Notes: a model not told the origin generated them from the letters alone. A stretch of 64,000 nucleotides of DNA from an uncultured bacterium (GCA_964624625.1 CAZUXW010000004.1:28931-92930); one strand, 5' to 3'; positions 2,726-53,358 are shown, counted from the stretch's first letter. Program-made: numbers and translations.

Positions 2726-5700
2726 ATGAAGCCATTGAAGGGCCGCCGCTCCAATTTTCCATCCCTCCGTCGATGGCTTTTATCGGCCTCGCTCCTTCTT
2801 TCTATTCCGTCCCTCTCCTGGGGCCTGGAGTTTGGGATGAACAAGGTCCGGTACCACACGGACCATCAATGGAAAATCCTGGAGACGGAGCATTTCGAGA
2901 TTTATTACTACCAGGAATGCGAGACCCTCGCCCAGGCCGCGACCGGCTACGCGGAAAAGGCCTTCCTGAAGATCAGCAAAAGCTACGACTTCGTCCCCAA
3001 GAATAAAATCCCCCTGTTTATTTACGGCACTTCCACCGAGTTCCAGGAAACCAACATCACTCCCCAGGCCCTGCCCGAGGGAGTGGGGGGATTCACCGAG
3101 GTTTTCAAGAACCGCATCGTGGTTCCCATGGGCGGATCCTACCATGAGTTCGAGAAGGTCATCACCCATGAATTGACCCATGCCTTCCAGTACGACATGA
3201 TTTACGGCGAGGGTTGGCGCTCGGTGAACCTCTTCAAGGCGGTCTTCGTCCCCAATTGGATGATGGAGGGCATGGCTGAGTGGACGGCCCAGCATTGGGA
3301 ATCCCAGGGAGAGATGGTCCTGCGGGACGCGGTCCTGAACGACCAGGTCATCCCCCTGAATATGCTGGAATCCTTCGACCATTTCGAGCAGGTTTACATG
3401 GCTTACAAGGAATCCCAAAGCATCTTGGAATACGCCTCCCAGCTTTACGGCCCCGAGAAGGTCTACCAGATGATGAAAAAAATGGCCTCCAACCAGCAGG
3501 CCGACACGGTCCTGAAGTCCGTCCTGGGGGTTTCCCTGAACGAGCTTTTCGAGAACTGGCATTTTTACATCAAGTCCAGCGCCTGGGCGAGGATCCAAGG
3601 GATGCCTCCTCCGGACAAATACGGGGATTCCTTGGAGATGGGGGTCGCCAAGGCCGCGGCCTCGCCCGATGGGAAATGGGCGGCCTACCTGAAGGGAAGG
3701 GACCTGGTCCTTTGGGAAGTTTCCACCAAGAAAAAGACAACCCTCCTCCGGGAAAATTTCCAAACCCAGGGATCGGGAATCGCCTGGTCCCCGGACGGTA
3801 AAGAACTCGCCTTCGCCTCCAACCGGGATGGCGACTATATCCTCAAAACCATCGACCTGGGCAGCCGCAAGACGAGGGAACTCAAGGTTCCCCTTATGCC
3901 CTTGATCTATTCGCCGTCCTGGTCCCAGGACCAAAAGTTCCTGCTTTTTTCCGGTTTTGACTACCGCACCGTGGATTTGTACCGCTTGGAACTGGCCACC
4001 GGGAAGATCGACCGGCTCACCGACAACCAGGAAAGCGAATCCTGGGCCTGTTATTCGCCGGACGGCGCCAGCCTTTTTTACCTCGAGGAGGGCGGCGGGG
4101 AAACCAGGCTCAAGCGGGTGGATTTGGATTCCCGGGGCTTGCCCTTAAAGACGCCTATTTTAGTGGGAGGCGACCTGGGAACCGTCTCCTCTTTTCGAAT
4201 CGCGAAGAACTCGATTTACCTGACGTCCAATAAGAACAAGAGGATTTTCAACCTCTACCGCATGGATTTGGATGGAAGCCATTTGACCCAGCTGACGAAT
4301 AGCTTCGTGGACATCCTCAGCGCAGCCCCCGGCCCCGGCGCGGAGGATTTTTATTGCTGTCTTTACCGGCGGGGCCAGGAATCCCTCTCCCTGTTTCGCG
4401 CTGAAAAGCTGGAACCAACCCCCCCGCCCTCCGATGCTTCCGGCTATTTGGCCAATCGTTTCGACAACGCGTCGAACTTGATTCCCTCGGCCGCCGCTCC
4501 CCCTAAGGACGCGGAGAACCAGGACAACGCCGAAAAAACGGAGCAGGATTCGGCGAAGGACAAAAAAGAACCGGCGGCGCCGCCCATGGCCGTTTCCCGC
4601 TTGGAAGTCGTGGAAGCGTCCAATTTGGTCCAGCTCCAGTGGCCCGTGACCGCCGTGGAACAGGAAGCCGTAACCAGCTACCATGTTTTCCGATCCAAGA
4701 CCGCGGACGGGGATTTCGACCTGGTCGGAACCGTCTCCCCGGTTCGGCAGGGACGCTTCACGGATTATGACGTCCAAACGGGCGAGAATTATTTTTACTA
4801 TGTCACGGCCGTCAACAAGGCGGGCGAAAGCCCCCCCTCGCCCCCGCTGGAAGTCCAGCCCAATTTTAAGATCGTGTCCAGGGATTACCACCTGAAGATA
4901 TCCCCGGACATTCTTCTTTTCCTGGCCGGCTATGACAGTTCCTTCGGCTTCGTGGGGGGAGGTGTCCTCCAAATGAGCGATTACCTGGGCGACCACAGGC
5001 TGGCCATCCTGGGGGACACCATTCCCAGCGTCCGTACGGGCGTCGAGGCCAATTACCAGTTTTCCGCCTGGCGGACGACCGTGGACCTCAACTTTTTTTA
5101 TTTCCAGAATTTTTTCAGGATCTTCGACGTCCAAACGGGGAGCCTGGTGGATGAGTACCGCAACAACGAGAATGGGCTGGACGTGAATTTCACCTATCCC
5201 CTGGACCAGACCACGAGGTTCGAGTACGGGTTGGGGACCCAGCGTTTCCAGGGAAGCCCCCTGTTCCTGCGTTTCTCCGAGGGTATCTCCAATTATTTCC
5301 AAAACACGGACCAGTGGAACGTGGCCAACTATTACCGCGTCTCCCTGGTCCAGGACAAGCGGCGGGCCACCCAGTTTTGGCCGAGCAGCGGATACGCGGC
5401 GAATTTCACCCTGCTGCACGCGGTCCCGGTCCTGGACGCCAATGTTTCCTTCGCGAACCTTTTGTTGGAGACCCAGTTTTACGCCGATATCGGGTTTTTG
5501 AACCACTTGATCTGGGCGAACCGTATCGTCGCCATGACTTCCCAGGGCCCCAATCCCCAGTCCTTTTTTATCGGGGATGACGCGCCCTTCCAGGCTTTTT
5601 TCACGACCATCCGGGGCTACGGGGCAGGGACCTTTTTTGGGTCCAATTTAGGCCTCTGGAACATGGAGTTCCGTTATCCGATCGCCACCAACATGAATTT

Positions 5701-8737: not shown

Positions 8738-8766
8738 TTGACAATTGGGTTCGTAACTTCTATAAC
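8738..8766 (+). promoter_or_regulatory. Sigma-70-type promoter (TTGACA-17 bp-TATAAC) driving the recombinase gene
   Basis: Exact -35 hexamer, a 17-bp spacer and a 5/6 match at -10, placed 30 bp upstream of the AGGAGG RBS. Confidence 0.45.
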
Positions 8767-8786
8767 TACAATTATAGAAGTTACGA
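8751..8786. promoter_or_regulatory. Perfect 15-bp inverted repeat with a 6-bp spacer (TCGTAACTTCTATAA-ctacaa-TTATAGAAGTTACGA): candidate tyrosine-recombinase core site or autoregulatory operator
   Basis: Read directly from the sequence. It overlaps the promoter spacer and -10 and abuts the recombinase RBS. Confidence 0.5.
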
Positions 8787-8796
8787 AGGAGGAGTT

Positions 8797-14509: not shown

Positions 14510-14586
14510 TGGTCGGGGCGGCAGGATTTGAACCTGCAACCTTTTGCACCCCATGCAACTGCGCTACCGGGTTGCGCCACGCCCCG
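14510..14586 (-). tRNA. tRNA-Pro (anticodon GGG)
   Basis: Reverse complement folds as acceptor CGGGGCG/CGCCCCG, D arm GCGC…GCGC, anticodon loop ATGGGGT, T arm GCAGG-TTCAAAT-CCTGC and a CCA end. Confidence 0.8.
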
Positions 14587-14625
14587 AAAAACCGACCATG
14601 AACCGAGATGTTGAAAGGGTGACTT

Positions 14626-14701
14626 TGGTCGGGGTGAGAGGATTCGAACCTCCGGCCCCTTGGTCCCGAACCAAGTGCGCTAGCCGCTGCGCTACACCCC
14701 G
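14626..14701 (-). tRNA. tRNA-Pro (anticodon CGG)
   Basis: Reverse complement folds as acceptor CGGGGTG/CACCCCG, anticodon stem CTTGG/CCAAG with loop TTCGGGA, T loop TTCGAAT and a CCA end. Confidence 0.85.
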
Positions 14702-18892: not shown

Positions 18893-19369
18893 CTATTTCA
18901 AAACTACAAATTTCTGAAGGGGAAGCTTCGTGATTTGGCCCGTTGCCTTATCCTCGATTTGGGCTTGGTAATAGTAAATTCCCTCGGAGACGGTCTTTAA
19001 GTTCCAAAGAATGTCGAAAAGGGACCCGCCTTCTTTTTCGATGGTGGCGATCACGTCAAAGAAGCGGTTGTTGACCCGGATGCGGACTTTGCAGGGGCCG
19101 GCGGCCATGACCCTAAAGTTAAGTTTCTTGCCGCGGGCTGGGTTGGGGATGACGGTGACTTTGGGCAGGGATTTGTCGAAAACGATGGTGGGTTTGGGAG
19201 TGTCGGCGAAAATTGGGGAAAGCGGCATTGCGCCACAGATGAACAAGGATAAACACAGATGGCCTAGGAAAATCTTAAGTAGGGTTTGCCGCGTCTTAAA
19301 ACCACCCGATGGGGGTTGAGTCCCGCAAGGACGGCTAAAATTCCTAATTCCTAATCCCGAATTCCTCAT
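18893..19369 (-). CDS. Hypothetical secreted protein with a C-terminal Ig-like/FlgD-like domain
   Basis: Signal-peptide-like segment (LCLSLFICGAMPLSPIFA). The C-terminal beta-rich block (VTVIPNPARGKKLNFRV…GIYYYQAQI) resembles secretion-sorting/Ig-like domains. The start is ambiguous between M1 at 19381 and M5 at 19369, because the 5' end overlaps a TTAGGAATT repeat. Confidence 0.4.
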   Translation of the reverse strand: MRNSGLGIRNFSRPCGTQPPSGGFKTRQTLLKIFLGHLCLSLFICGAMPLSPIFADTPKPTIVFDKSLPKVTVIPNPARGKKLNFRVMAAGPCKVRIRVNNRFFDVIATIEKEGGSLFDILWNLKTVSEGIYYYQAQIEDKATGQITKLPLQKFVVLK

Positions 19370-23841: not shown

Positions 23842-23943
23842 TTGCCACAGATGATCAGGGATGAACTCAGACAAATCTTTTTTAAAAGGATTTCGAATTT
23901 TAGTTTGCGCCATCCGTGTTAATCCGTGTTCATCTTTGGCTAA
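23842..23943. repeat. Copy X of a ~95-nt structured intergenic repeat (TTGCCACAGATGATCAGGGA…GTGTTCATCTTTGGCTAA)
   Basis: Lies between exbB and exbD. It shares termini and internal inverted repeats with the copies at 24587 and 42103. Confidence 0.55.
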
Positions 23944-23954
23944 CCCTAGTTTCC

Positions 23955-24566
23955 TCATCCGAACCTTTCGTTTATTTCCGAGATGACGATCTCCGCTTCC
24001 TGGGCGATTTCATTCAGCCTGGCCTGGAACCAGTTGTAGATGAAAACCGCCGAGATGGCCACGAAGAGGCCGGTGGCGGTGGCAAAAAGGGCCTCCGCGA
24101 TTCCTTTGGAAACGACCGCCGCTCCCCCGGCATTGGCCAAAGCCAGGTCCTGGAAGGCCTGAATAATGCCTAAAACGGTGCCAAAAAGCCCCACGAAGGG
24201 CGCGATGCTGCCGATGGTGGCCAGAAGCGGCAATCGGGCTTCCAGCCGCAAAAGCTGGATCTTCGCCTCCCTTTCCATGGCCTGGGTCAAGTCCGTCCCG
24301 TCATTTTTGGCCTTGAGCCCCGCCTGGACGACCTTGGCTAAAAGGGTGCCGTTTCGGTCGCAGGCTTCCACGCATTCATGGAACGTTTTTTTGTTGAGGA
24401 AGGGTTCCAAAGCCGCCATCACCTCTTCCCTTTTCCGGTAATGGGCGCGGAAATAGGTCCAGCGGTTGTAAAGCACCGCCACGACCACAATGGACATGAG
24501 GATCAAAAGGCCGATCGTCCAGCCGCCCTTCAATAAAACCTGGAACAACGAGAAATCGTGACTCAT
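23955..24566 (-). CDS. exbB: ExbB/TolQ/MotA-family proton channel
   Basis: Three TM segments with the conserved C-terminal region (…IAPFVGLFGTVLGII.AF…GIAEAL.ATA.GL). Confidence 0.85.
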   Translation of the reverse strand: MSHDFSLFQVLLKGGWTIGLLILMSIVVVAVLYNRWTYFRAHYRKREEVMAALEPFLNKKTFHECVEACDRNGTLLAKVVQAGLKAKNDGTDLTQAMEREAKIQLLRLEARLPLLATIGSIAPFVGLFGTVLGIIQAFQDLALANAGGAAVVSKGIAEALFATATGLFVAISAVFIYNWFQARLNEIAQEAEIVISEINERFG

Positions 24567-24586
24567 AAATCCTCCAAAAAATTCAA

Positions 24587-24680
24587 TTGAACCACAGAGT
24601 TACTCAGAGTTCCCAAAAGTGAGGCTTAAAATCCTTGAAATCATTTTACTCTGTGTTACCCCGTGTAACTCTGTGGTTAA
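24587..24680. repeat. Copy Z of the structured intergenic repeat (TTGAACCACAGAGTTAC…GTAACTCTGTGGTTAA)
   Basis: A 14-bp perfect terminal inverted repeat plus internal ACTC(A/T)G(A/T)G repeats, between the OM-barrel gene and exbB. Confidence 0.6.
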
Positions 24681-24685
24681 AATCC

Positions 24686-26575
24686 CTAAAAAATAACTTC
24701 AATTCCCCCGCGGATGTGAAACCTCGGCTCCAAGTATCCAGGCTGGATTTGGTAATTCTCTCCCAGCAAATTATCCCCATTCAGCCATAGGGAGAAAGTC
24801 TTGCTCAAATGGTAAGTGGCGTCAAGCCCCAGGGTCCAGTAGGCGGGTAAGGACCCAGGCAGGCTGTCGAACGCCTGCCGGTCCGACATGGCCTGCAATT
24901 CCAACCTTGTTTCCAACTGGTCGTCCCCGCGATAAATGGAAAGGATGCCCCGGTGCGCGGCTAATCCCGTAACGTTCAAACCATCCCCGGAGCGGTTCAT
25001 GCCCTGGGTCCATTGATAGGTCGCGGCAGCCTGCCAATCCTTCATGAAGTTCCATTGAACATTGGCCCCGGCCTTGGTGATTTCAACCTCGCCGAGGGTG
25101 GAATAGGCCTGGATTTGGACCGGCGCCGAGGGAGATATGTCGGTCCATTGGTGGTCGTTTTGAATCCTGGCGACGGAGGCGGAAAGCGAGGTGATGATTT
25201 TTTCCGATATTTTTTGGGTGAACCGGCCTCCCCACTCGCCGGTCACCTCCGTGGCCAGGGGAAAACCCGTTTCCGGGGCCACATGCTCGTTGTTCATGTA
25301 GGTGTTATGAAAACTATCGACGTAACGGTCCGTGCGCCAATACAGATTGAGCTGGCTTTGGCCGAAAAACCGCCACATGAGGTCCAGAACGGGGAAAAAT
25401 TTGAGGGGAAGGTCCAATCCGCTTCCGCCCTGTCCTTGGAGTTTGGCCGTTAAGGACAAGTTTTCCCCGTGTTTTAAAAAGGCCTGGAGGCCGAACCATG
25501 CCCAGTCATAACTGGTGACGGCGGGCGAGGCGAAATCCGAGGTCGCCCTCCTGCCGCCGGCCTCTAATCCGACGCGGTTCAGGAAAGGATCCAGGTCCTC
25601 GGCGGTTACCTTAAATTGGCCTTCCAACTCGCCGGTTTGGTTGGTTTTGGCGCTTCCGTCCCAGTAGGACAAGGTCGTCGGCTGGTTTGAGATTTTCACT
25701 TGGGCCTGGACCAGGTTTGAGATTTTCCAATGGAGGTCCGCGCTTTGTTCCGAACCCTGATGGGTTTCCCGAATCGAGCCTTGGTAAGGCAGCTCATCCT
25801 CGATTTGGGAGATATTCCCGGCCAAGCGGAGGCTGAAGGGTGTCGAGGAGAATAATTTGACGTCCAATCCGAAATTATAGCGCTTGTCCCCGTCCCGTCC
25901 GGCTCCCGCCGCCTCGCCGCCCCAAGTCGAGTAAAAACCGTTCAACAGGTACTGAAGATCCTTGAATTCCTGGCCGAACAGCCCCCAGCCGCCGTAGCTG
26001 TCGGGAGTTCCTCCGCCCGCGTGCAGGATAAAGGCCGTGTCCTTCGAGGGGCCCGCTTCCTCCGCGGTCAAGGCGGTAAAGGTTTTATTGAGGCCGGGAA
26101 GATCGTTGATGGCTCTTTCCACCCCGGTCAGATCGTGGCTTCCCAAGGTTACGTCATTCTCTTTTCGATCCAGCCTCTTGGCGCCGATGGTCAATTCGTT
26201 TTCCCCCGTGATGACGACTTCAGGCAGGGAAAATTCCGGAACCGCGGTGGGCCGGCTTTGAACGGGGGCCTTTTCACCCTCGCCTTGGGATGGTTTTTGG
26301 TTGGCGCCAGGGGCCTGACCGGATGGTTCTCCCGGGATTGCCGCCGCGTCGGGCTTGGAGATATCGGATTTATCCGTCGCGGGGGTGGCGGAAGAGGTCA
26401 AGTCGCTGTCGGGAAGGATCGTCTCTTCGGCCTGGACGGAGGCGGCCATCAAACCTAAAACGCCGAAAAATAAAAATAGCCGATAGAGGCCGATTTGTCC
26501 GGCGGAGTTTTTGCGGAGCCGGAGGGAGGCCGGTGGGAAACCTTTTGGGCGGGGGATTTTTATGGGACTTTTCAC
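24686..26575 (-). CDS. Outer-membrane beta-barrel protein, TonB-dependent-receptor-like
   Basis: A signal peptide, a low-complexity Pro/Ser/Gln linker, a plug/TonB-box-like PEVVITGE, aromatic-rich beta-strand periodicity and a C-terminal …GGIEVIF. At 629 aa it is short for a canonical TBDR. Confidence 0.5.
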   Translation of the reverse strand: MKSPIKIPRPKGFPPASLRLRKNSAGQIGLYRLFLFFGVLGLMAASVQAEETILPDSDLTSSATPATDKSDISKPDAAAIPGEPSGQAPGANQKPSQGEGEKAPVQSRPTAVPEFSLPEVVITGENELTIGAKRLDRKENDVTLGSHDLTGVERAINDLPGLNKTFTALTAEEAGPSKDTAFILHAGGGTPDSYGGWGLFGQEFKDLQYLLNGFYSTWGGEAAGAGRDGDKRYNFGLDVKLFSSTPFSLRLAGNISQIEDELPYQGSIRETHQGSEQSADLHWKISNLVQAQVKISNQPTTLSYWDGSAKTNQTGELEGQFKVTAEDLDPFLNRVGLEAGGRRATSDFASPAVTSYDWAWFGLQAFLKHGENLSLTAKLQGQGGSGLDLPLKFFPVLDLMWRFFGQSQLNLYWRTDRYVDSFHNTYMNNEHVAPETGFPLATEVTGEWGGRFTQKISEKIITSLSASVARIQNDHQWTDISPSAPVQIQAYSTLGEVEITKAGANVQWNFMKDWQAAATYQWTQGMNRSGDGLNVTGLAAHRGILSIYRGDDQLETRLELQAMSDRQAFDSLPGSLPAYWTLGLDATYHLSKTFSLWLNGDNLLGENYQIQPGYLEPRFHIRGGIEVIF

Positions 26576-29500
26576 TTGGAAACCTCCGTTGGAACGCCAG
26601 CGGCAGGGCCGGCTGTCGTGGGAGCGGCGCCTGGGTTCACGGTTTCAACCGGCGCGGCCGTTGGTTCAGCCTTTGCCGGTCCTGGTTCGGGGGTGGAGGT
26701 TTTCACTTTTTTACCATTTCCTTTTCCTTTTTTCACCGGTTTGGCCTTGGCGGGTTTTTTGGCCCTCTCCTTGGCCAAGAAGGGTTCTAACGCCTTGAGC
26801 CGTTTCAAGGTCGCTGAGCGGTAAGATTTAATGTGGGTGTATTTCAAGATTCGGTTATAGGTCTCCTCCGCCTTGGTAAATTGCTTCATGGACTCGTAAC
26901 ATTCCGCCATCTTGGCGAAGGCCGTCACGACCCATTGGTCCTGGGAGGGGTATTGAATCGTGATATGGTTGAACTCGCTGACCGCTTCCGAGTACTTCCC
27001 CCCCTGCTTCAGGAGGTCGGCGTGGTAAAAAGCCGCTTCCACCGCCAGTTTTTGGTTTTCGGAACGCATGGTCACTTCGTAAGCTTTCGAGGCCTCCTCT
27101 TTACGCCCGTTTTTTTCCAGCAGGACGCCGGCCTGGAGGCCCGCTTCCTGGGCTAGGGGATCCGAACCATAGTCCTTTAAAAGTTTTTGGAAATATTCCA
27201 GGGATTTATCCGGATGGCCCAATTGCTTCTCGCAGATGGCGCTGTTGAAGAGGGAGTGGGGCGCCAAACGGTGGTCGGGGTAGTCTTGAAAAATGCCCGT
27301 ATAGGAGGCGAGGGCGTCCTTGAAATCCTGGGTCTCGAAATAAATGGAGCCGAGGCTGAATTGCCCCTCCAAGGCCAATGGATCGGTTGGGAATTTTTTT
27401 AAAAGGTCCTGGAAGACAGGCAGGGCCTCCTTGTTTTGCCCGTTTTTCACCAGGGCCGTTCCCATCCAAAAAAGGGACCGGGGGGCTTCGGCGCTGGCAG
27501 GATACTTATCGAGCAGGGTTTTGTAGGCCTCCACCGCTTCAGGGTATTTCTCGTCATGGAACAAATTATCCGCCAGACGGTACTGGATGCTCGGGGCAAA
27601 GGAGCTTCCGGGGAATTTTTCCAGAAAATCCTTCGCCACCTTCGAGGACTCGGACTTTTCCCCGAGCTTTTCCGAGGACCATTGGAGGCCGTAGAGGGCG
27701 TCGGGCAAGAGCGGATGCTCGGGATAGAGATCCATGAAGCTGCGGTAGACTTTTTTCGCTTCCGTGAACCGCTTGAGGTTAAAAAGGCAGTCCGCTTCCC
27801 TGAGATGGGCCTCGGGGGCCAGGCTGTCCTTGGGGTTTTCCGCCTCCACTTTGCCGAAAAGAACCTGGGCGGAATCGAAATCCTTGTCCCGGAAACAAGC
27901 CCAAGCGGTCCAGTAGGTCAGCCGCGCCTTGCGGTCCTCCGTTCCCGGTTTTAGGAGGAGCGCCTTCCAGAGTTCCCTGGCATGGGGGAATTTTTCCTGG
28001 CGGTAGGCGCACCAACCCAGCTGCTCCATCGCGTCCAGGGAATAGGGGGCGGCGGCCTTGTCGGTGACCAATTGGCGGTAGAGGGGTTCCGCCTTTTCGT
28101 ACTGGTGCTGGTTGTAAAAGCAATCCCCTGCCCGGAGCTGGGCTTCCATCCCCAAGGGTGAGGAGGGGTTTAACCGGTAGGATTTTTGGAAATTTTTGGC
28201 GGCGTCGTCGTATTTTTCCTGCTGAAAAAGACTCCAGCCGAGCCCGGAGAGGCAATTCAAGGCCAGGTTATCCGCCGGTTGTTTTTGGAGGGCGGCCCCA
28301 TATTCTTTCTCCGCTTCCGGGTAATTTTTTAATTGGTAGTCCGTTTCCGCGGCCCCCCAAAGGGTCCTGGTCTTGAGGTCGCCCTCGGCATCCTTGGCCA
28401 CCTCGCGGAAGGTCGTCAAAGCGCTGTCGTATTTCCCCGTGGCGTAATCGCACCAGGCCTTCCAATAGGAGGAAGCTTGGGCCAACTCACCAGGCCCCTT
28501 CTCATGGGTTTGGCTGTAAAGATCCCTCGCCGCATCGTATTTTTCCTGAAGGTAGAGGCATCCGGCTTGTAGATATTGGGCGTCCCAGCGCAGGTCGCTT
28601 TCCGGAAGGAACTTAGCGACGGCCTCGAAGTGGACCTCGGCCGAGTCAAATTGGCGGTTGGAATAATCGATCCAACCCAGCCCGTATTCCAGGAGGTCGG
28701 CCGGGGTTTTATGCCCCGCCAACTCCAGGCCCCGGCGGTAGGCTTGTCCCGCCGCCTCCTGGTCCCCCAGGACGGAGGATTCGGCGCCCTGCCGGGCCGC
28801 GGCCCAAGGCGCCAACAGGTGGGTGGGAAAGGAGGCGACGATCTTGCCGAAGGTCTTTTCGGCCTGGCTGTGGTTTTTTTGTTTTTCCAGGGTCCAGCCC
28901 AGCCCATAAAGAGCCGGCGCCTCCAGGAAATCATCCGGATATTTTTTCAGGAAATACTCGTAGCCCGTTTGGGCGTCCTGGAAATTTCCAAGGCGGAAGT
29001 GGGTTTCCGCCAATTGAAAAAGCGTCAATTTGGAAAGGGTGTTGTCCTCAGGGGATTTTTCCAGGACCTGGGTGAAGCCCTCCAAAGCCTGGGTATAGTC
29101 GTTGTGCTGGTAGTAGCACCAGGCCCTCAGGTAGCGCACCAAGTTGGCGTATTGGTAGTTTGGATTTTGGTCCAGGATTTTGCCGTATTGCCTTCCGGCG
29201 TTCTCGTAGTCCTCCAGTTGGAAATAACATTCCGCCTCCCAAAAATAAAGGTCGGAGAATGTGTCCGGCTCAAAGGCCCGTTTTTCCAACTCTTGGAACT
29301 TGTCGATGGCCGACCGGTAATTTTTCAGGTAAACGGAGGACACAGCCGATTTAAATTCCAGCCCCAAGGCCCCCGCGGAGAGGGGGTTTAAGTGGAGCGA
29401 TTGTTGGTAGGCCTGGTAGGCGGAGGCGTAGTCCTTCTCGTGAAATTGCGTCTCGCCGATCAGCCGCAGGGCCAGGGCCCTTTCAATGGTGCTTTCGCTT

Positions 29501-31702: not shown

Positions 31703-32326
31703 TTACTTGCTATCGCTTGGCCGAAGTTTGGCGATATTATCCATCAAACGCTCGGCGATTTTAAGATAGGTACTTTTGTCCGCTTTTTCACGATAAAGAT
31801 CCTCCAGCGGAACGGGAGGTCCATAGGTAACCGAGGTTTTTCCGGGACGAGGTAACAGTTTACCCTTGGGCCAACAGTGGAAGGTTCCGGCGATGTAGGC
31901 CGGGATGACTGGGACTTTGGCGTTGTAAAGGAGCATTCCCGCCCCTTTTTTGGCCGGTTGCAGTTCCCCCGTCAAGGTCCTCGTCCCTTCCACGAATAAA
32001 ACCAGCGGTTTTCCCGAATGGAGGAAATCGTGGAACCGCTGGATGGCGGTCTCGTCAAAGGTTCCCCGCTTCACCGGAAAGGCGTTGCAATAGGTAATGA
32101 TGGCGCCGAAGACGGGGACTTTGAAAAGCTCTTCCTTGGCCATGAACCCCACTTCCCTCTCGCGGCTGGTGTAGCCGATGAGATAGGGATCCAAAAAGCT
32201 GGCGTGGTTGGCCACGACGATAAAGGGGCCGGTCAAGGGGATGTTTTCGGTGCCGATGCCCTTGGTTTGGAAAAAGAGGGAGATGAACCAGGTGGTGGTG
32301 ACGCGTAGTTTGGGGAAAGAAGCCAT
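31703..32326 (-). CDS. plsC: 1-acyl-sn-glycerol-3-phosphate acyltransferase
   Basis: HxxxxD motif (ANHASFLD) and an FVEGTR block. Confidence 0.8.
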   Translation of the reverse strand: MASFPKLRVTTTWFISLFFQTKGIGTENIPLTGPFIVVANHASFLDPYLIGYTSREREVGFMAKEELFKVPVFGAIITYCNAFPVKRGTFDETAIQRFHDFLHSGKPLVLFVEGTRTLTGELQPAKKGAGMLLYNAKVPVIPAYIAGTFHCWPKGKLLPRPGKTSVTYGPPVPLEDLYREKADKSTYLKIAERLMDNIAKLRPSDSK

Positions 32327-32348
32327 TCAATCCCTCCAGGGTTTGAAG

Positions 32349-32447
32349 AAATTAGGAATTCGGAATGAGGAGTTGGGAATTGAACCAAAAGCCGCGGGAT
32401 TGTCGTTGGTTTTAAAATTCCTAATTCCTAACTCCTAATTACTAATT
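32349..32447. repeat. Inverted-repeat element built from TAGGAAT-like heptamers (AAATTAGGAATTCGGAATGAGGAGTTGGGAATT … AAAATTCCTAATTCCTAACTCCTAATT) flanking a 27-bp core
   Basis: Read directly. It lies in the plsC upstream region and overlaps the last codons of the DAHP synthase gene. A related copy is at 19337-19369. Confidence 0.55.
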
Positions 32448-33561
32448 ATTTGTTCCATAGTTTCTTCAGACGGTTGTGGGCCAACAGGATCAACTCCTCG
32501 GTGGTGACCCAGTTGATGCAGGCGTCGGTGATGGAGACGCCGTATTGTAATTTGGACCGGTCCTTTTGCAGGGGCTGGTTGCCCTCGTTCAGGTTGCTTT
32601 CCAGCATGAAGCCGACCACCGAGTCATTTCCCTTTTCGATTTGATCCAGGACGGAATTGAAGGCCGTGGGCTGCAAACGGTAGTCCTTGTTGGAGTTGCC
32701 GTGGCTGCAATCCACCACGATATTCTTCGGCAGTCCCGCGTCCGCCAGGCCCTTTTCGCAGGCGGCGATGGAAGCGGGATCGTAGTTGGGCTTGGAGCCC
32801 CCCCTCAGGACGATGTGCGCGTAGGGATTTCCCGTTGTCCGGAAAACGGCTGTTTGGCCGTTTTGATCGATCCCTAAAAAATGATGGGAGCTGTTGGCCG
32901 ACTTGATGCCGTTCAGGGCAACCTGGATGCTTCCATCGGTGGCGTTCTTGAAGCCGATGGGCATGGAAAGGCCGCTGGCCATTTCCCGGTGGGTTTGGGA
33001 CTCGGTCGTGCGGGCGCCGATGGCGGACCAGCTGATGAGGTCGGCCAGATATTGGGGAATAATCGGATCCAGGGCCTCGGTCGCGGTCGGCAGGCCCATT
33101 TCCGTGAATTTCAGGAGCAGGCGGCGCCCCAACAGGATGCCCTTCTCGATATGAAAGGAATCATTCATGTCCGGATCGTTGATCAGGCCCTTCCAACCGA
33201 TGGTCGTGCGGGGTTTCTCGAAATAAACCCTCATCACCAGGAGCATGGTCGACTGGACCATGCCCGCCAGGCGTTTGAGTTTTGACGCGTATTCATAAGC
33301 GGCTTGGGGATCGTGGATGGAACAGGGGCCCACCACCACGAATAAACGGCGGTCCTTGTGGTCGAGGATCGCCTCGACTTCCCTGCGTCCCTTGAGGACC
33401 GTTTCATAGGCCTTTTTGTTCCCCGGCAGTTTCGCCTTCACTTTTTTGGGCGTGATGAGGATTTGGGAGCCGGCCACATGGGTGTCCTGGGCCCTGGCTT
33501 TGAGGTTGATCTTGCCGATTTGGGAGAATTTTAATTTGGGGGATGTCTTTTTTTTCGCCAT
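32446..33561 (-). CDS. aroG: 3-deoxy-7-phosphoheptulonate (DAHP) synthase, class I (AroG/F/H type)
   Basis: Motifs RLFVVVGPCSIHD, KPRTT.GWKGL and GARTTESQ.HRE… match class I alpha DAHP synthase. Confidence 0.9.
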   Translation of the reverse strand: MAKKKTSPKLKFSQIGKINLKARAQDTHVAGSQILITPKKVKAKLPGNKKAYETVLKGRREVEAILDHKDRRLFVVVGPCSIHDPQAAYEYASKLKRLAGMVQSTMLLVMRVYFEKPRTTIGWKGLINDPDMNDSFHIEKGILLGRRLLLKFTEMGLPTATEALDPIIPQYLADLISWSAIGARTTESQTHREMASGLSMPIGFKNATDGSIQVALNGIKSANSSHHFLGIDQNGQTAVFRTTGNPYAHIVLRGGSKPNYDPASIAACEKGLADAGLPKNIVVDCSHGNSNKDYRLQPTAFNSVLDQIEKGNDSVVGFMLESNLNEGNQPLQKDRSKLQYGVSITDACINWVTTEELILLAHNRLKKLWNK

Positions 33562-34304: not shown

Positions 34305-34363
34305 CTCAAAACGGATTTGAACCACCCAGCCCCTCGCGCCGAGGCGAGGGGCAGGGTGGTTCA
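34305..34363 (-). terminator. Rho-independent terminator after the glycosidase-like gene
   Basis: A ~20-bp near-perfect GC-rich hairpin (TGAACCACCCAGCCCCTCGC…GCGAGGGGCAGGGTGGTTCA) followed on the minus strand by a GTTTTG tract and then a T7 run. Confidence 0.45.
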
Positions 34364-34383
34364 AAAGATTTTGGGGTAAATTT

Positions 34384-42035: not shown

Positions 42036-42102
42036 GTTAACCCCGAATGATGAATTGGAAAAGCCGAAGGCGCATACAAGAAACGGTAAAAGATAAAACC
42101 TA

Positions 42103-42196
42103 TTGACCACAGATGAACAGGGATTTACACAGAAGTAAAATTATTTTTATGTAAACCTTTTTCAATCGGTGTAAATCCATGTCCATCAATGGTTAA
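42103..42196. repeat. Copy Y of the structured intergenic repeat (TTGACCACAGATGAACAGGGATTTACAC…GTGTAAATCCATGTCCATCAATGGTTAA)
   Basis: Lies between aroA and cmk. It has the same 5' CCACAGATGA.CAGGGAT and 3' TGG.TAA ends as copies X and Z, plus an internal GATTTACAC/GTGTAAATC inverted repeat. Confidence 0.55.
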
Positions 42197-42206
42197 TTTC
42201 ATTTTC

Positions 42207-43505
42207 CTAACCGCGGCTGATTCGCTTCAGCATGGTTTCGAAGCCGGGGAATGAGGTATTGATGTTTTCGGTGTCCAGAATCGTCGTGGGCCCCTCCGCG
42301 ATCAAAGCCGCGACGGCGAGGGACATCGCGATTCGGTGGTCCCCTCCCGAAGAAAGCACGCAACCTTTTAACGGAGTGGGCCCCTTGATCACCCATCCAT
42401 CCTGGGTGGGCGTGATATCGGCGCCCATTTTTTTCAAAGTCACCGCCATCAGGCTGATCCTGTCGGATTCCTTGACCTTCATTTCGCCGGCATTCCGGAC
42501 GATGGTCGTTCCCCTGGCCTGGGTCGCAGCCACGGCGAAAACCGGAAACTCATCGATCATCCGGGGAACCAGGTCGCCTCCCGCGGCAACGGCCTTTAAT
42601 GGGGAGGACGACACCATGAGGTCCGCGCTTGGCTCCTCCCCCTTTCCCGATTTTCGGGGCATCACCTTGATTTTAGCGCCCATTTTTTTGAGAACATCGA
42701 GGATTCCGGTGCGGGTGGGATTCATTCCGACATTTTTTAAAGTCACTAAGGACTTGGGAACAATAAGACCGGCAACGATAAAAAAAGCGGCCGAGGAAAT
42801 ATCGCCTGGGACGGTAATTTTCCTCGCTTTGAATGGATCGACCGGGCCCGTTACCGAAATTTCCTTGTTCTTTTTGCGGAAGGGGATGGAAAAGGCGCTG
42901 AACATTCTTTCCGTATGATCCCTTGTGGGCGTCGGCTCGACGACGGTGGTTTTCCCATCCGCGAAAAGACCTGCCAACAACAGGGCGCTTTTGACCTGTG
43001 CGCTGGCCACCGGCAAGGCATAGGTGATTCCCGTTAATCCGCTTGGTTGCAGCGTTAAGGGAAGCAGGGCTGCATTCCCGGGGCCCGAGATCCGCGCTCC
43101 CATTTGGGCCAGCGGCGCGACTACCCGTTTCATCGGGCGCTTCCGGAGATACTTGTCTCCGGTTATGGAACAGGCAAAGGGCTGGCCTGCCAAAAGCCCC
43201 AAAATAATCCTGGCGGTCGTTCCCGAGTTCCCCGCGTCAAGAATTCCTTTGGGCATCCTCAAGGAATTGAGCCCTTTACCATGGATCACGATTTCCCCGG
43301 CCTTTTGTTCGATTCGGACGCCCATCTTCCTGAAAATTCCGATGGTGGAACGGCAATCGGCCGAGTTTAGAAAATGGCGGACACGCGTTTTTCCAAGCGC
43401 GAGGGACCCCAGCATGACGGAACGGTGGGAAATGGATTTGTCGCCGGGAACCTCCAGGGTCCCTTTCAGGCTCGCCGCGGGATGGACCGTTATTTTTTTC
43501 ATCAT
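42207..43505 (-). CDS. aroA: 3-phosphoshikimate 1-carboxyvinyltransferase (EPSP synthase)
   Basis: Motifs LEVPGDKSISHR, LDAGNSGTTAR and GDHRIAMS. The start ATG overlaps the tyrA stop (ATGA). Confidence 0.9.
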   Translation of the reverse strand: MMKKITVHPAASLKGTLEVPGDKSISHRSVMLGSLALGKTRVRHFLNSADCRSTIGIFRKMGVRIEQKAGEIVIHGKGLNSLRMPKGILDAGNSGTTARIILGLLAGQPFACSITGDKYLRKRPMKRVVAPLAQMGARISGPGNAALLPLTLQPSGLTGITYALPVASAQVKSALLLAGLFADGKTTVVEPTPTRDHTERMFSAFSIPFRKKNKEISVTGPVDPFKARKITVPGDISSAAFFIVAGLIVPKSLVTLKNVGMNPTRTGILDVLKKMGAKIKVMPRKSGKGEEPSADLMVSSSPLKAVAAGGDLVPRMIDEFPVFAVAATQARGTTIVRNAGEMKVKESDRISLMAVTLKKMGADITPTQDGWVIKGPTPLKGCVLSSGGDHRIAMSLAVAALIAEGPTTILDTENINTSFPGFETMLKRISRG

Positions 43506-52518: not shown

Positions 52519-53358
52519 TCAAAACTCCAAGCGTAAAAGCTGTCGAATCCAAAGGAACCCGATCGTTTCCAACAAACCAGCCAGCAGAAGGATGGCCCAT
52601 CCTGTTTTTTCGGTGAAAAGCGGGAGGATAAGGCCGGGATCCATGAAAAAAAAGACGGCTCCCAGCAAAAGCGGCAGCAACCCCATGAGAAGTCCCGAAA
52701 GCCGGGCCTGGGCCGTAAGGGCTTCCCTCTTACGGAACATCCTGTTCTTTTCCTCCATGCCGTCCATTAGGACCTCCAGCAAATGGATCAAATTAGCCCC
52801 CGTTTGCCGGGAAATCCTGTAGGATTCCAGAAATTGCCTCAACTCGATGAAACCCTCAAAACGACCGCACATTTTGGACAGGGCCTGGTCGGCGGAAGCC
52901 CCCAGATTCAACTCGGAGCAAACCAAGGACCATTCCTCTTTTAATGGACTGGGACTTTCCGCCGACAAGTACTCAAAAACCTGTTGGACGGTTTGACCTG
53001 TTTTAAGCGATTGAACCATCATCCCCAGAGCTTGAGGGAAAAGCTCGCGCATCCCCTCCATTTTTTTATTCCGCTCGATTTTTTTCAGGTAAATCGGAAT
53101 ATTTTTGAGGGCGTACCAGCCCAAGGCGAGGGGAAAAAGGATGAAAAGGACCGGGAAACCAGCGAGCCCCAAGGCCGCCACCGCCGCCAGGGCGCAGAGG
53201 ATGCCAAGGGGGGCGCGGATGGGGATTCTTCCGCTCCAGGCCTTTGTCGGGAGGGTGGAAGGCTTGACCAGGGCCGACATCCCTTGGGCGGCCCACCAGG
53301 ATAAAAGTCCCGCGGATAAGGCCGCCAAGCCCACGCCAGCCAACAGGGATGGGTTCAT
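52519..53358 (-). CDS. tadB: Tad/Flp pilus assembly protein TadB (T2SS-F family)
   Basis: A GspF-like domain (FPQALGMMVQSLKTGQTVQQ…LNLGAS.DQAL) and three TM segments. Confidence 0.65.
   Translation of the reverse strand: MNPSLLAGVGLAALSAGLLSWWAAQGMSALVKPSTLPTKAWSGRIPIRAPLGILCALAAVAALGLAGFPVLFILFPLALGWYALKNIPIYLKKIERNKKMEGMRELFPQALGMMVQSLKTGQTVQQVFEYLSAESPSPLKEEWSLVCSELNLGASADQALSKMCGRFEGFIELRQFLESYRISRQTGANLIHLLEVLMDGMEEKNRMFRKREALTAQARLSGLLMGLLPLLLGAVFFFMDPGLILPLFTEKTGWAILLLAGLLETIGFLWIRQLLRLEF

Follow-up and report, generated by a model that had tools for sequence, protein, structure and literature searches.

Hairpin repeats built of tandem 10-nt units at gene junctions around exbB and between aroA and cmk in an uncultured bacterium, and their relatives in other phyla

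Hairpins between co-transcribed genes

In a 64,000-nucleotide (nt) stretch of DNA from an uncultured bacterium (GCA_964624625.1, CAZUXW010000004.1:28931-92930; the whole stretch is referred to here as the window), three copies of a repeat, X, Y and Z, form hairpins in the gaps between genes. All three lie on the minus strand, as do the operons that hold them; the gene context was obtained from open reading frames (ORFs) annotated with Pfam. Copy Z (24587-24680) is a hairpin between a 629-amino-acid (aa) ORF, itself preceded by a 1087-aa TPR protein, and exbB (ATG at 24566), and it begins 5 nt after the stop codon of the upstream ORF (24686-24688). Copy X (23842-23943), an imperfect hairpin, follows the exbB stop codon (23955-23957) by 11 nt and is succeeded by exbD and then by a gene for a TonB_C protein. 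Copy Y (42103-42196) lies 10 nt after the stop codon of aroA, the gene for EPSP synthase (42207-42209), and upstream of cmk (ATG at 42038). An earlier note on this DNA had described these copies with their ends, a 14-bp terminal inverted repeat in Z and a setting in minus-strand operons, and both the sequence and the annotation bear it out. Z opens with TTGAACCACAGAGTTAC and closes with GTAACTCTGTGGTTAA; the 14-nt segment AACCACAGAGTTAC is perfectly complementary between the ends and makes up the outer stem. The sense strand of X reads TTAGCCAAAGATGAACACGGATTAACACGGAT, then a loop, then GTCTGAGTTCATCCCTGATCATCTGTGGCAA. The loops of the three copies measure about 24-39 nt.

How stable are these hairpins as RNA? 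On the minus strand, and compared with dinucleotide shuffles, the predicted folds are -26.1 kcal/mol for X (z -3.4), -32.9 kcal/mol for Z (z -4.7) and -33.8 kcal/mol for Y (z -6.8). None of 200 shuffles was as stable as X, Y or Z, and the values for the plus strand are similar. The fold comparison that had been proposed as a check thus came out with all three copies far more stable than shuffled sequence.

A repeat family found in many phyla

The arm of the repeat is about 30 nt long (28-36 nt) and consists of about three tandem 10-mers, AACCACAGAT, GAACACGGAT and GAACACAGAT, with a consensus that starts (A/G)(A/G)CCACAGAT. It opens with a terminal unit, (A/G)(A/G)CCACNGAT, behind which come one to three further units of 10 nt that share the core CACNGAT; a unit length of 10 nt holds for 201 of about 214 ACAGAT-type arms. 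The second arm is the reverse complement of the first, and the loop between them is unrelated in sequence and ranges from 4 to more than 150 nt. One genome, at the locus designated L091, holds three copies within 8 kb whose arms are identical and perfectly paired and whose loops are unrelated, from which it follows that the faithfully copied unit is the arm and not the whole element.

A collection of 185,579 species genomes was scanned with an 18-nt arm pattern, CCACAGATGAWCANGGAT, and at least 120 genome stretches matched; the counts of arms, hairpins and neighbours given here and below are those among the matches listed from these stretches. The 120 listed stretches contain 136 arms. Our own estimate of the chance expectation, made with uniform base composition, is about 140 matches in the whole collection. 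That the listed matches are not chance is indicated by their free positions, which are far from random: pattern position N is C in 126 of the 136 arms, position W is A in 134 of them, and the ten unspecified bases after the pattern read GAACACAGAT, with 75-80% agreement per position. An inverted partner was found within 260 nt for 67 matches, giving hairpins with a total length of 52-218 nt (median 89), and about 45-59 arms stand alone. The hosts include Planctomycetota (among them the complete genome of Limnoglobus roseus), Acidobacteriota, Verrucomicrobiota, Kiritimatiellia, Nitrospirota, Nitrospinota, Gemmatimonadota, Latescibacterota, Armatimonadota, Chloroflexota, Bdellovibrionota, Bacteroidota (two Pedobacter isolates), several classes of Proteobacteria and candidate division FCPU426; cultured isolates and closed genomes from several phyla are among the carriers. 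A plasmid of the cyanobacterium Aulosira laxa, a Thiodictyon plasmid and 13 IMG/VR viral contigs carry related copies. No similar sequence was found in 5,426 Escherichia coli genomes searched by blastn with the consensus hairpin, nor in 50,697 GenBank phage records. The arm is nearly unchanged in more than a dozen bacterial phyla.

Are X, Y and Z true members of this family? An alignment (A3) of 46 clean hairpins from other organisms, with loops trimmed to 8 nt, was used to build a covariance model, R1. Its training set holds no window sequence, and the window was searched with the filters off. R1 recognised Y at E 1.9e-9, X at 4e-5 on the plus and 2e-4 on the minus strand, and Z at 3.2e-4. 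A hidden Markov model (HMM) of the single arm gave E values of 1.8e-6 and 3.4e-6 for the arms of X and 2.4e-7 for a lone arm, W, described below, and these together with the left arm of Y lie within 2e-7 to 3e-6; the right arm of Y scored only E = 2, and in Z just the outer 11 nt were matched. Each copy has two inverted arms of at least two tandem 10-nt units, a start of the form (A/G)(A/G)CCACNGAT and a free loop. X, Y and Z are therefore members of a cross-phylum CCACAGAT-GAACACGGAT hairpin family, Z only as a variant. X and Y are decayed forms of the family consensus, Y being the best preserved in the window. Z is a sequence variant whose units are CACAGAG-TTA and CACGGGG-TAA, not CACAGAT-GAA; these unit changes occur in concert on both arms, and the outer AACCACAGAG is retained. 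The earlier note had called a family from three copies. With at least 120 matching stretches, and with a model trained on foreign copies recognising those in the window, the family spreads far beyond three, and the case in which only these copies exist does not arise.

Such breadth is unusual, as short interspersed repeats of bacteria do not as a rule extend beyond one genus or species; in one census, 97.4% of prokaryotic MITEs (miniature inverted-repeat transposable elements) were genus-specific (PMC11602168). An arm found across soil, freshwater and sediment bacteria points either to a very broadly transferred mobilising system or to an unrecognised shared cellular interaction, which makes the repeat more interesting than had first been suggested. 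A named model would aid the annotation of uncultured genomes and the search for the enzyme or factor behind the repeats.

The family also has close kin. Among the fetched loci, the terminal signature ACC(A/G)C(A/G)GA is common to several sister subfamilies: CCGCAGAT-GAACGCAGAT, with a 10-nt period, and CACCGCAGAG-A/G-CGCGGAG and CCACAGAG-A-CACAGAG, both with an 8-nt period. The subfamilies are often nested, a CCACAGAT hairpin or lone CCACAGAT arms lying inside the loop of a hairpin of the CACCGCAGAG type (L040, 3264-3420; L050, about 3370-3560; L101, about 3392-3520). In a metagenome-assembled genome (MAG) of an alphaproteobacterium (L053, 6965-7680), a pair of identical arms, of four units each, faces inward from the two sides of about 600 bp of non-coding, G+C-rich DNA; this interval contains 18-nt tandem repeats (GCGATGCGCGCCGTGCGAT...), with no credible ORF and no transposase inside.

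Insertion into compact junctions

How did the hairpins come to lie between these genes? Orthologous loci of relatives were compared, with identities given to ExbB for the exbB sites and to Cmk for the aroA-cmk site. Contigs from other samples that encode an identical ExbB are 99.9% identical to the window, have no indels and keep both X and Z, so that the exact insertion boundaries cannot be read from them. More distant loci are syntenic and mostly compact, with overlapping genes or junctions of 9-30 nt. At the Z site the junction measures 14-25 nt in L127/L128, L130/L131 and L149 (72-77% identity). The X site is compact in L129, L146, L148, L149, L150 and L151 (67-86% identity), and there the exbB stop codon overlaps a ribosome-binding site (GGAAATTAGGAGGCCGCGATG or similar). 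At the Y site, the aroA stop overlaps the cmk start (ATGA, ATGAATGA or TAATG) in four relatives, L226-L229, at 78-87% identity. In the window the gap between aroA and cmk is 168 nt (42039-42206) and there is no more than a weak GGGG purine run ahead of the cmk start, so that translational coupling of the pair was lost when Y was inserted.

Since most relatives are compact at all three sites, X, Y and Z are lineage-specific insertions. Each went in directly behind a stop codon, at a junction between co-transcribed genes, and together they uncoupled aroA from cmk and opened gaps on either side of exbB. The copies had been described as sitting in short intergenic gaps; it is rather the copies that create these gaps.

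Some relatives hold other elements at the same junctions. The Z site is occupied in L129 and L146 by an AT-rich element of AAGTTTTAA / TTAAAACTT units, and in L147 (82% ExbB identity) hairpins of the GTCATTGCGAG...CTCGCAATGAC type fill both gaps flanking exbB. The X site carries a GAGGAATTAGG-type hairpin in L130 and, in L152, a lone CCGCAGAT arm, TAGCCGCAGATTTACGCAAATGAACGCAG, starting right at the stop codon; L152 is represented by a partial contig, and the C-terminal 94 residues of its ExbB are 94% identical to those of the window. No other occupant was seen at the Y site in its four relatives. One of these four, the MAG CAZHFP01 (87% Cmk identity), is without Y; in another 8-kb locus of this genome, L031, R1 matches three times. 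In 122 kb of relatives' DNA around exbB and cmk no R1 match was found. Together, these loci indicate that the family is present in the clade, at different places in each species, and that turnover is faster than about 6% aa divergence.

What kind of element?

The position of the hairpins relative to genes is similar elsewhere. Neighbours were classed from crude gene calls (longest ORFs), with 18 further hairpins overlapping a called ORF; among the 39 hairpins with classifiable neighbours, 23 lie between co-directional, 12 between convergent and 4 between divergent genes, and 35 of the 39 are downstream of a gene. Their start is mostly 0-30 nt past the upstream stop codon, which at several loci is provided by the arm itself. 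Reading inward, stop codons occur in at least two frames in 88% of the arms and in all three in 39% (9% in shuffles); the opposite reading direction of the arms has few. The outer flanks show no clear asymmetry relative to transcription.

Does selection act on the hairpin as RNA? RNA-type covariation is absent. Among the 46 aligned sequences, variable columns within the arms change without covariation (columns 27/54, 50% unpaired; columns 23/58, 37% unpaired), and in the 23 co-directional hairpins the sense strand has 38 G·U and 37 A·C mismatches. A selected RNA helix would favour G·U, so the equal numbers speak against RNA selection. The covariation pattern indicates that each arm keeps its own primary sequence and that only the stem foot is matched.

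We give roughly even credence to the view that X, Y and Z are dispersed extragenic palindromic DNA repeats akin to the repetitive extragenic palindromic (REP) and the short tandemly repeated repetitive (STRR) sequences, with the mRNA hairpin as a by-product. In such a case the arms would propagate at the DNA level, through an activity acting in trans or through recombination or template switching between copies. Copies would persist where they do little harm, as inward reading meets stop codons in two or three frames and the genes that follow have ribosome-binding sites. A transcribed copy would place a stem of 28-36 bp in a polycistronic mRNA, and this stem could serve as a barrier to 3' exonucleases or as a substrate of RNase III, in which event the ratio of upstream to downstream product could shift (ExbB versus ExbD/TonB, AroA versus Cmk). 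Any such effect on the processing or stability of the exbB-exbD-tonB and aroA-cmk mRNAs may be incidental and not the reason for the conservation of the sequence. Whatever spreads them, the elements break translationally coupled pairs, here aroA-cmk, and make long stems inside operons; they also yield spurious small ORFs in annotation and probably fragment metagenome assemblies.

Several observations weigh against this preferred reading of a dispersed DNA repeat. The flank position next to CC covaries strongly in the 46 sequences (A-U in 23, G-C in 17, U-A in 4, unpaired in 2), which indicates that pairing at the stem foot matters to something. Lone arms between co-directional genes are oriented in the sense direction in 14 cases against 2, or about 10 against 2 once hidden hairpins are subtracted, small numbers in which W is among the exceptions; a purely symmetric DNA element does not predict such a bias. 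Near-identical arms in more than 12 phyla are hard to explain for a selfish repeat. All-against-all clustering of ORFs revealed no protein family enriched within 8 kb of the 120 loci, none being present in more than 7 of them, and no mobilising enzyme was found nearby. Nor was any target-site duplication or consistent direct repeat found at boundary offsets of 0-8 nt. Finally, the internal sequence is not conserved among the copies of one genome (L091), and therefore cut-and-paste or copy-and-paste of the whole element does not fit.

Is the arm, then, the real unit? We entertain, tentatively, the possibility of a pan-bacterial superfamily of micro-repeats, so far undescribed, whose working unit is the ~30-nt arm and whose subfamilies include CCACAGAT, CCGCAGAT, CACCGCAGAG and CCACAGAG; a conserved or horizontally mobile machine would recognise or write this arm. 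If true, this would account for near-identical arms from Planctomycetota to Bacteroidota with free loops, as well as for the sense-biased lone arms and the nesting of subfamilies.

Alternatively, the hairpins could be cis-acting RNA elements, kept by selection in polycistronic mRNA for differential stability or processing, as an RNase III site or a 3'-exonuclease barrier. A role of this type has been proposed for the REP in malE-malF. The strong and significant folds of X, Y and Z are consistent with it, as are the covarying stem foot and the location in transcribed 3' regions, with few elements in divergent promoter regions. The Ton complex contains more ExbB than ExbD, and a stem between the two genes might fit that need. 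For the hairpins of STRR sequences, too, a part in raising transcript stability or coupling translation has been suggested (PMC2670836). However, the sense strand shows no wobble bias, the internal variable positions do not covary, lone arms are common and R1 does not score consistently better on the sense strand. Most close relatives lack the elements at these junctions, and others hold unrelated hairpins. The earlier note had raised the idea of an RNA structure tuning intra-operon expression; in view of the mismatches, the lack of internal covariation, the lone arms and the turnover of occupants, we consider a selected RNA unlikely. The covariation analysis it had called for gave a divided answer, positive at the stem foot and negative at the variable positions within the arms.

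The conservation could also reside in double-stranded DNA read by a protein. Such a protein would contact CACNGAT once per helical turn (10 bp), and inverted arrays would bind a symmetric oligomer; candidate binders would be nucleoid-associated proteins, topoisomerases, and recombinases or transposases that use several end sites. This would agree with conservation in the primary sequence of the arm and not in its pairing, with the 10-nt spacing kept in more than 90% of GAT-type arms, with the existence of lone arms and with the symmetry of G·U and A·C mismatches. Yet the units of sister subfamilies measure 8 nt (CGCAGAGA, CACAGAGA) and those of other hairpins in these same gaps 7 nt, so helical phasing is not general. 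With loops of 4 to more than 150 nt the geometry between the arrays is not fixed, none of the proteins at the 120 loci stands out as a candidate and the elements lie at gene ends, not at promoters. An array of this kind strikes us as quite unlikely. Termination or attenuation, with the hairpins stopping or pausing RNA polymerase in both directions at gene ends, is very improbable. It would suit elements that lie downstream of genes, including 12 convergent pairs, and the sense strand does have T-rich tracts 8-17 nt beyond X, Y and Z. But these tracts are not adjacent to the stems, a consensus scan returned no site resembling an intrinsic terminator at X, Y or Z, and all three copies lie inside operons whose exbD, tonB and cmk must be expressed. 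The 10-nt repeat with its YG dinucleotide does conform to the elemental pause rule, G-10/Y-1 G+1 (PMC12288461); both arms satisfy it trivially, so that it does not discriminate. An RNA polymerase pause array was dropped as uninformative on the same ground, as any 10-nt repeat with YG obeys the rule.

Comparison with known systems

The elements are of a known general kind, extragenic palindromic repeats, and fail the defining tests of REP (GTAG/CGTC), MITE, STRR and terminator alike. With REP, BIME and REPIN they share an extragenic location, high copy number, a palindrome that is imperfect, its stems conserved and its loops variable, and a preference for sites after genes, singly or in inverted pairs. 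REP sequences are palindromes of 20-40 bp marked at one end by the tetranucleotide GTAG or CGTC, have been suggested to act in mRNA stability, termination and supercoiling, and form families of which some are species-specific and others common to several species (PMC3733652). Here, in contrast, the arms are 28-36 nt of tandem 8-10-nt units, are not themselves palindromic and keep their sequence across phyla; across 70 hairpins, each orientation had 3-5 GTAG/CGTC tags where chance would give about 8. REP and REPIN elements also go with a RAYT gene, for a Y1 tyrosine transposase, in the same genome; no such association was seen here in the 8 kb around each of the 120 loci. The lack of a counterpart in the 5,426 E. 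coli genomes also sets the family apart from enteric REP, BIME and ERIC. That it is none of the known ones, as the earlier note had judged, agrees further with the lack of an Rfam match and with the absence of the sequence from the literature searched. In Rfam 15 only two transfer RNAs pass the gathering threshold in the window and X, Y and Z have no match; when E values up to 10 are admitted, X and Z draw at best chance matches to microRNA models, far below threshold. The two tRNA genes are adjacent (14513-14701, minus strand) and are the only Rfam matches in the window. Searches with the arm sequences and with two sister subfamilies matched only unrelated primers, in a literature that mostly excludes subscription journals, so that an older description is possible; on the concept, only general papers on REP, MITE and STRR were found.

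The STRR sequences resemble the present repeat in having arms of short tandem repeats that can fold as a hairpin between co-transcribed genes. For those of cyanobacteria, for example between hupS and hupL, transcript stability or translational coupling has been proposed as a role (PMC2670836). They differ in their 7-bp units and in having been described for filamentous cyanobacteria, whereas the units here are 10 nt, the terminal CC unit is distinct and the many host phyla are mostly non-cyanobacterial. Heptamer hairpins in the style of STRR are present in the window itself (32347-32440) and in the exbB gaps of relatives. The window example, on the minus strand between a DAHP synthase ORF (32446-33561) and an ORF at 31703-32326, is unrelated to X, Y and Z; its arms are tandem 7-8-mers, TAATTAGTAATTAGGAGTTAGGAATTAGGAATTT ... 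AATTCCCAACTCCTCATTCCGAATTCCTAATTTC, a type that also fills the exbB-exbD gap of L130.

A likeness to MITEs (Correia/NEMIS, ERIC, RUP, Nezha) lies in the short, non-coding sequence with inverted ends, the intergenic location and the presence/absence polymorphism. Unlike MITEs, the repeat has no target-site duplication and its loops are not conserved even within one genome; we know of no parent insertion sequence for it. The label of a MITE- or REP-like element given to the copies at first thus holds for their extragenic, palindromic nature and their gain and loss between relatives, and does not hold in the sense of a classical MITE. The DNA uptake sequence (DUS) of Neisseria and the uptake signal sequence (USS) of Haemophilus are likewise short, oriented and abundant motifs whose intergenic copies are often inverted pairs after genes. 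These are 9-12 bp long and confined to narrow lineages, in contrast to a tandemly built motif of about 30 nt common to unrelated phyla. A scan for sigma-70 promoters gave no promoter-like site at X, Y or Z. Likenesses to integron attC sites, to the 5' end of 16S rRNA and to DnaA boxes, Pho boxes and CsrA sites were considered; none fits all units or the location, and none is claimed.

Other repeats in the window

One member of the family had been missed in the initial list of copies, which was otherwise right for X, Y and Z. This is the lone arm W, CCACAGATGAACAAGGATAAACACAGAT, on the plus strand at 19233-19260, downstream of fabD and 4 nt from a minus-strand ATG at 19228. It has no inverted partner, reads as a 3'-type arm on the mRNA strand, and the 161 nt around it fold no better than shuffles (z +0.56). 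About 70 nt from W, at 19330-19365, lies half of a hairpin of the heptamer family, AATTCCTAATTCCTAATCCCGAATTCCTCA. The gap downstream of fabD thus contains two half-elements of different families that are not complementary.

The sole further R1 match in the window at E < 1 (E 8e-4) is a G+C-rich hairpin on the minus strand at 34314-34367, downstream of a 1071-aa ORF. It is an inverted repeat with 22-nt arms that are 95% complementary, and it shares with the family only the outer clamp, TTGAACCAC...GTGGTTCAA, which is as in Z; its membership is uncertain. Three other inverted repeats, for which R1 gave E > 1 or no listing, lie at 8750-8787, 28975-29067 and 52885-52969; one of them is a palindrome of 16 bp without mismatch, TTCGTAACTTCTATAA/TTATAGAAGTTACGAA, and the other two are hairpins about 90 nt long.

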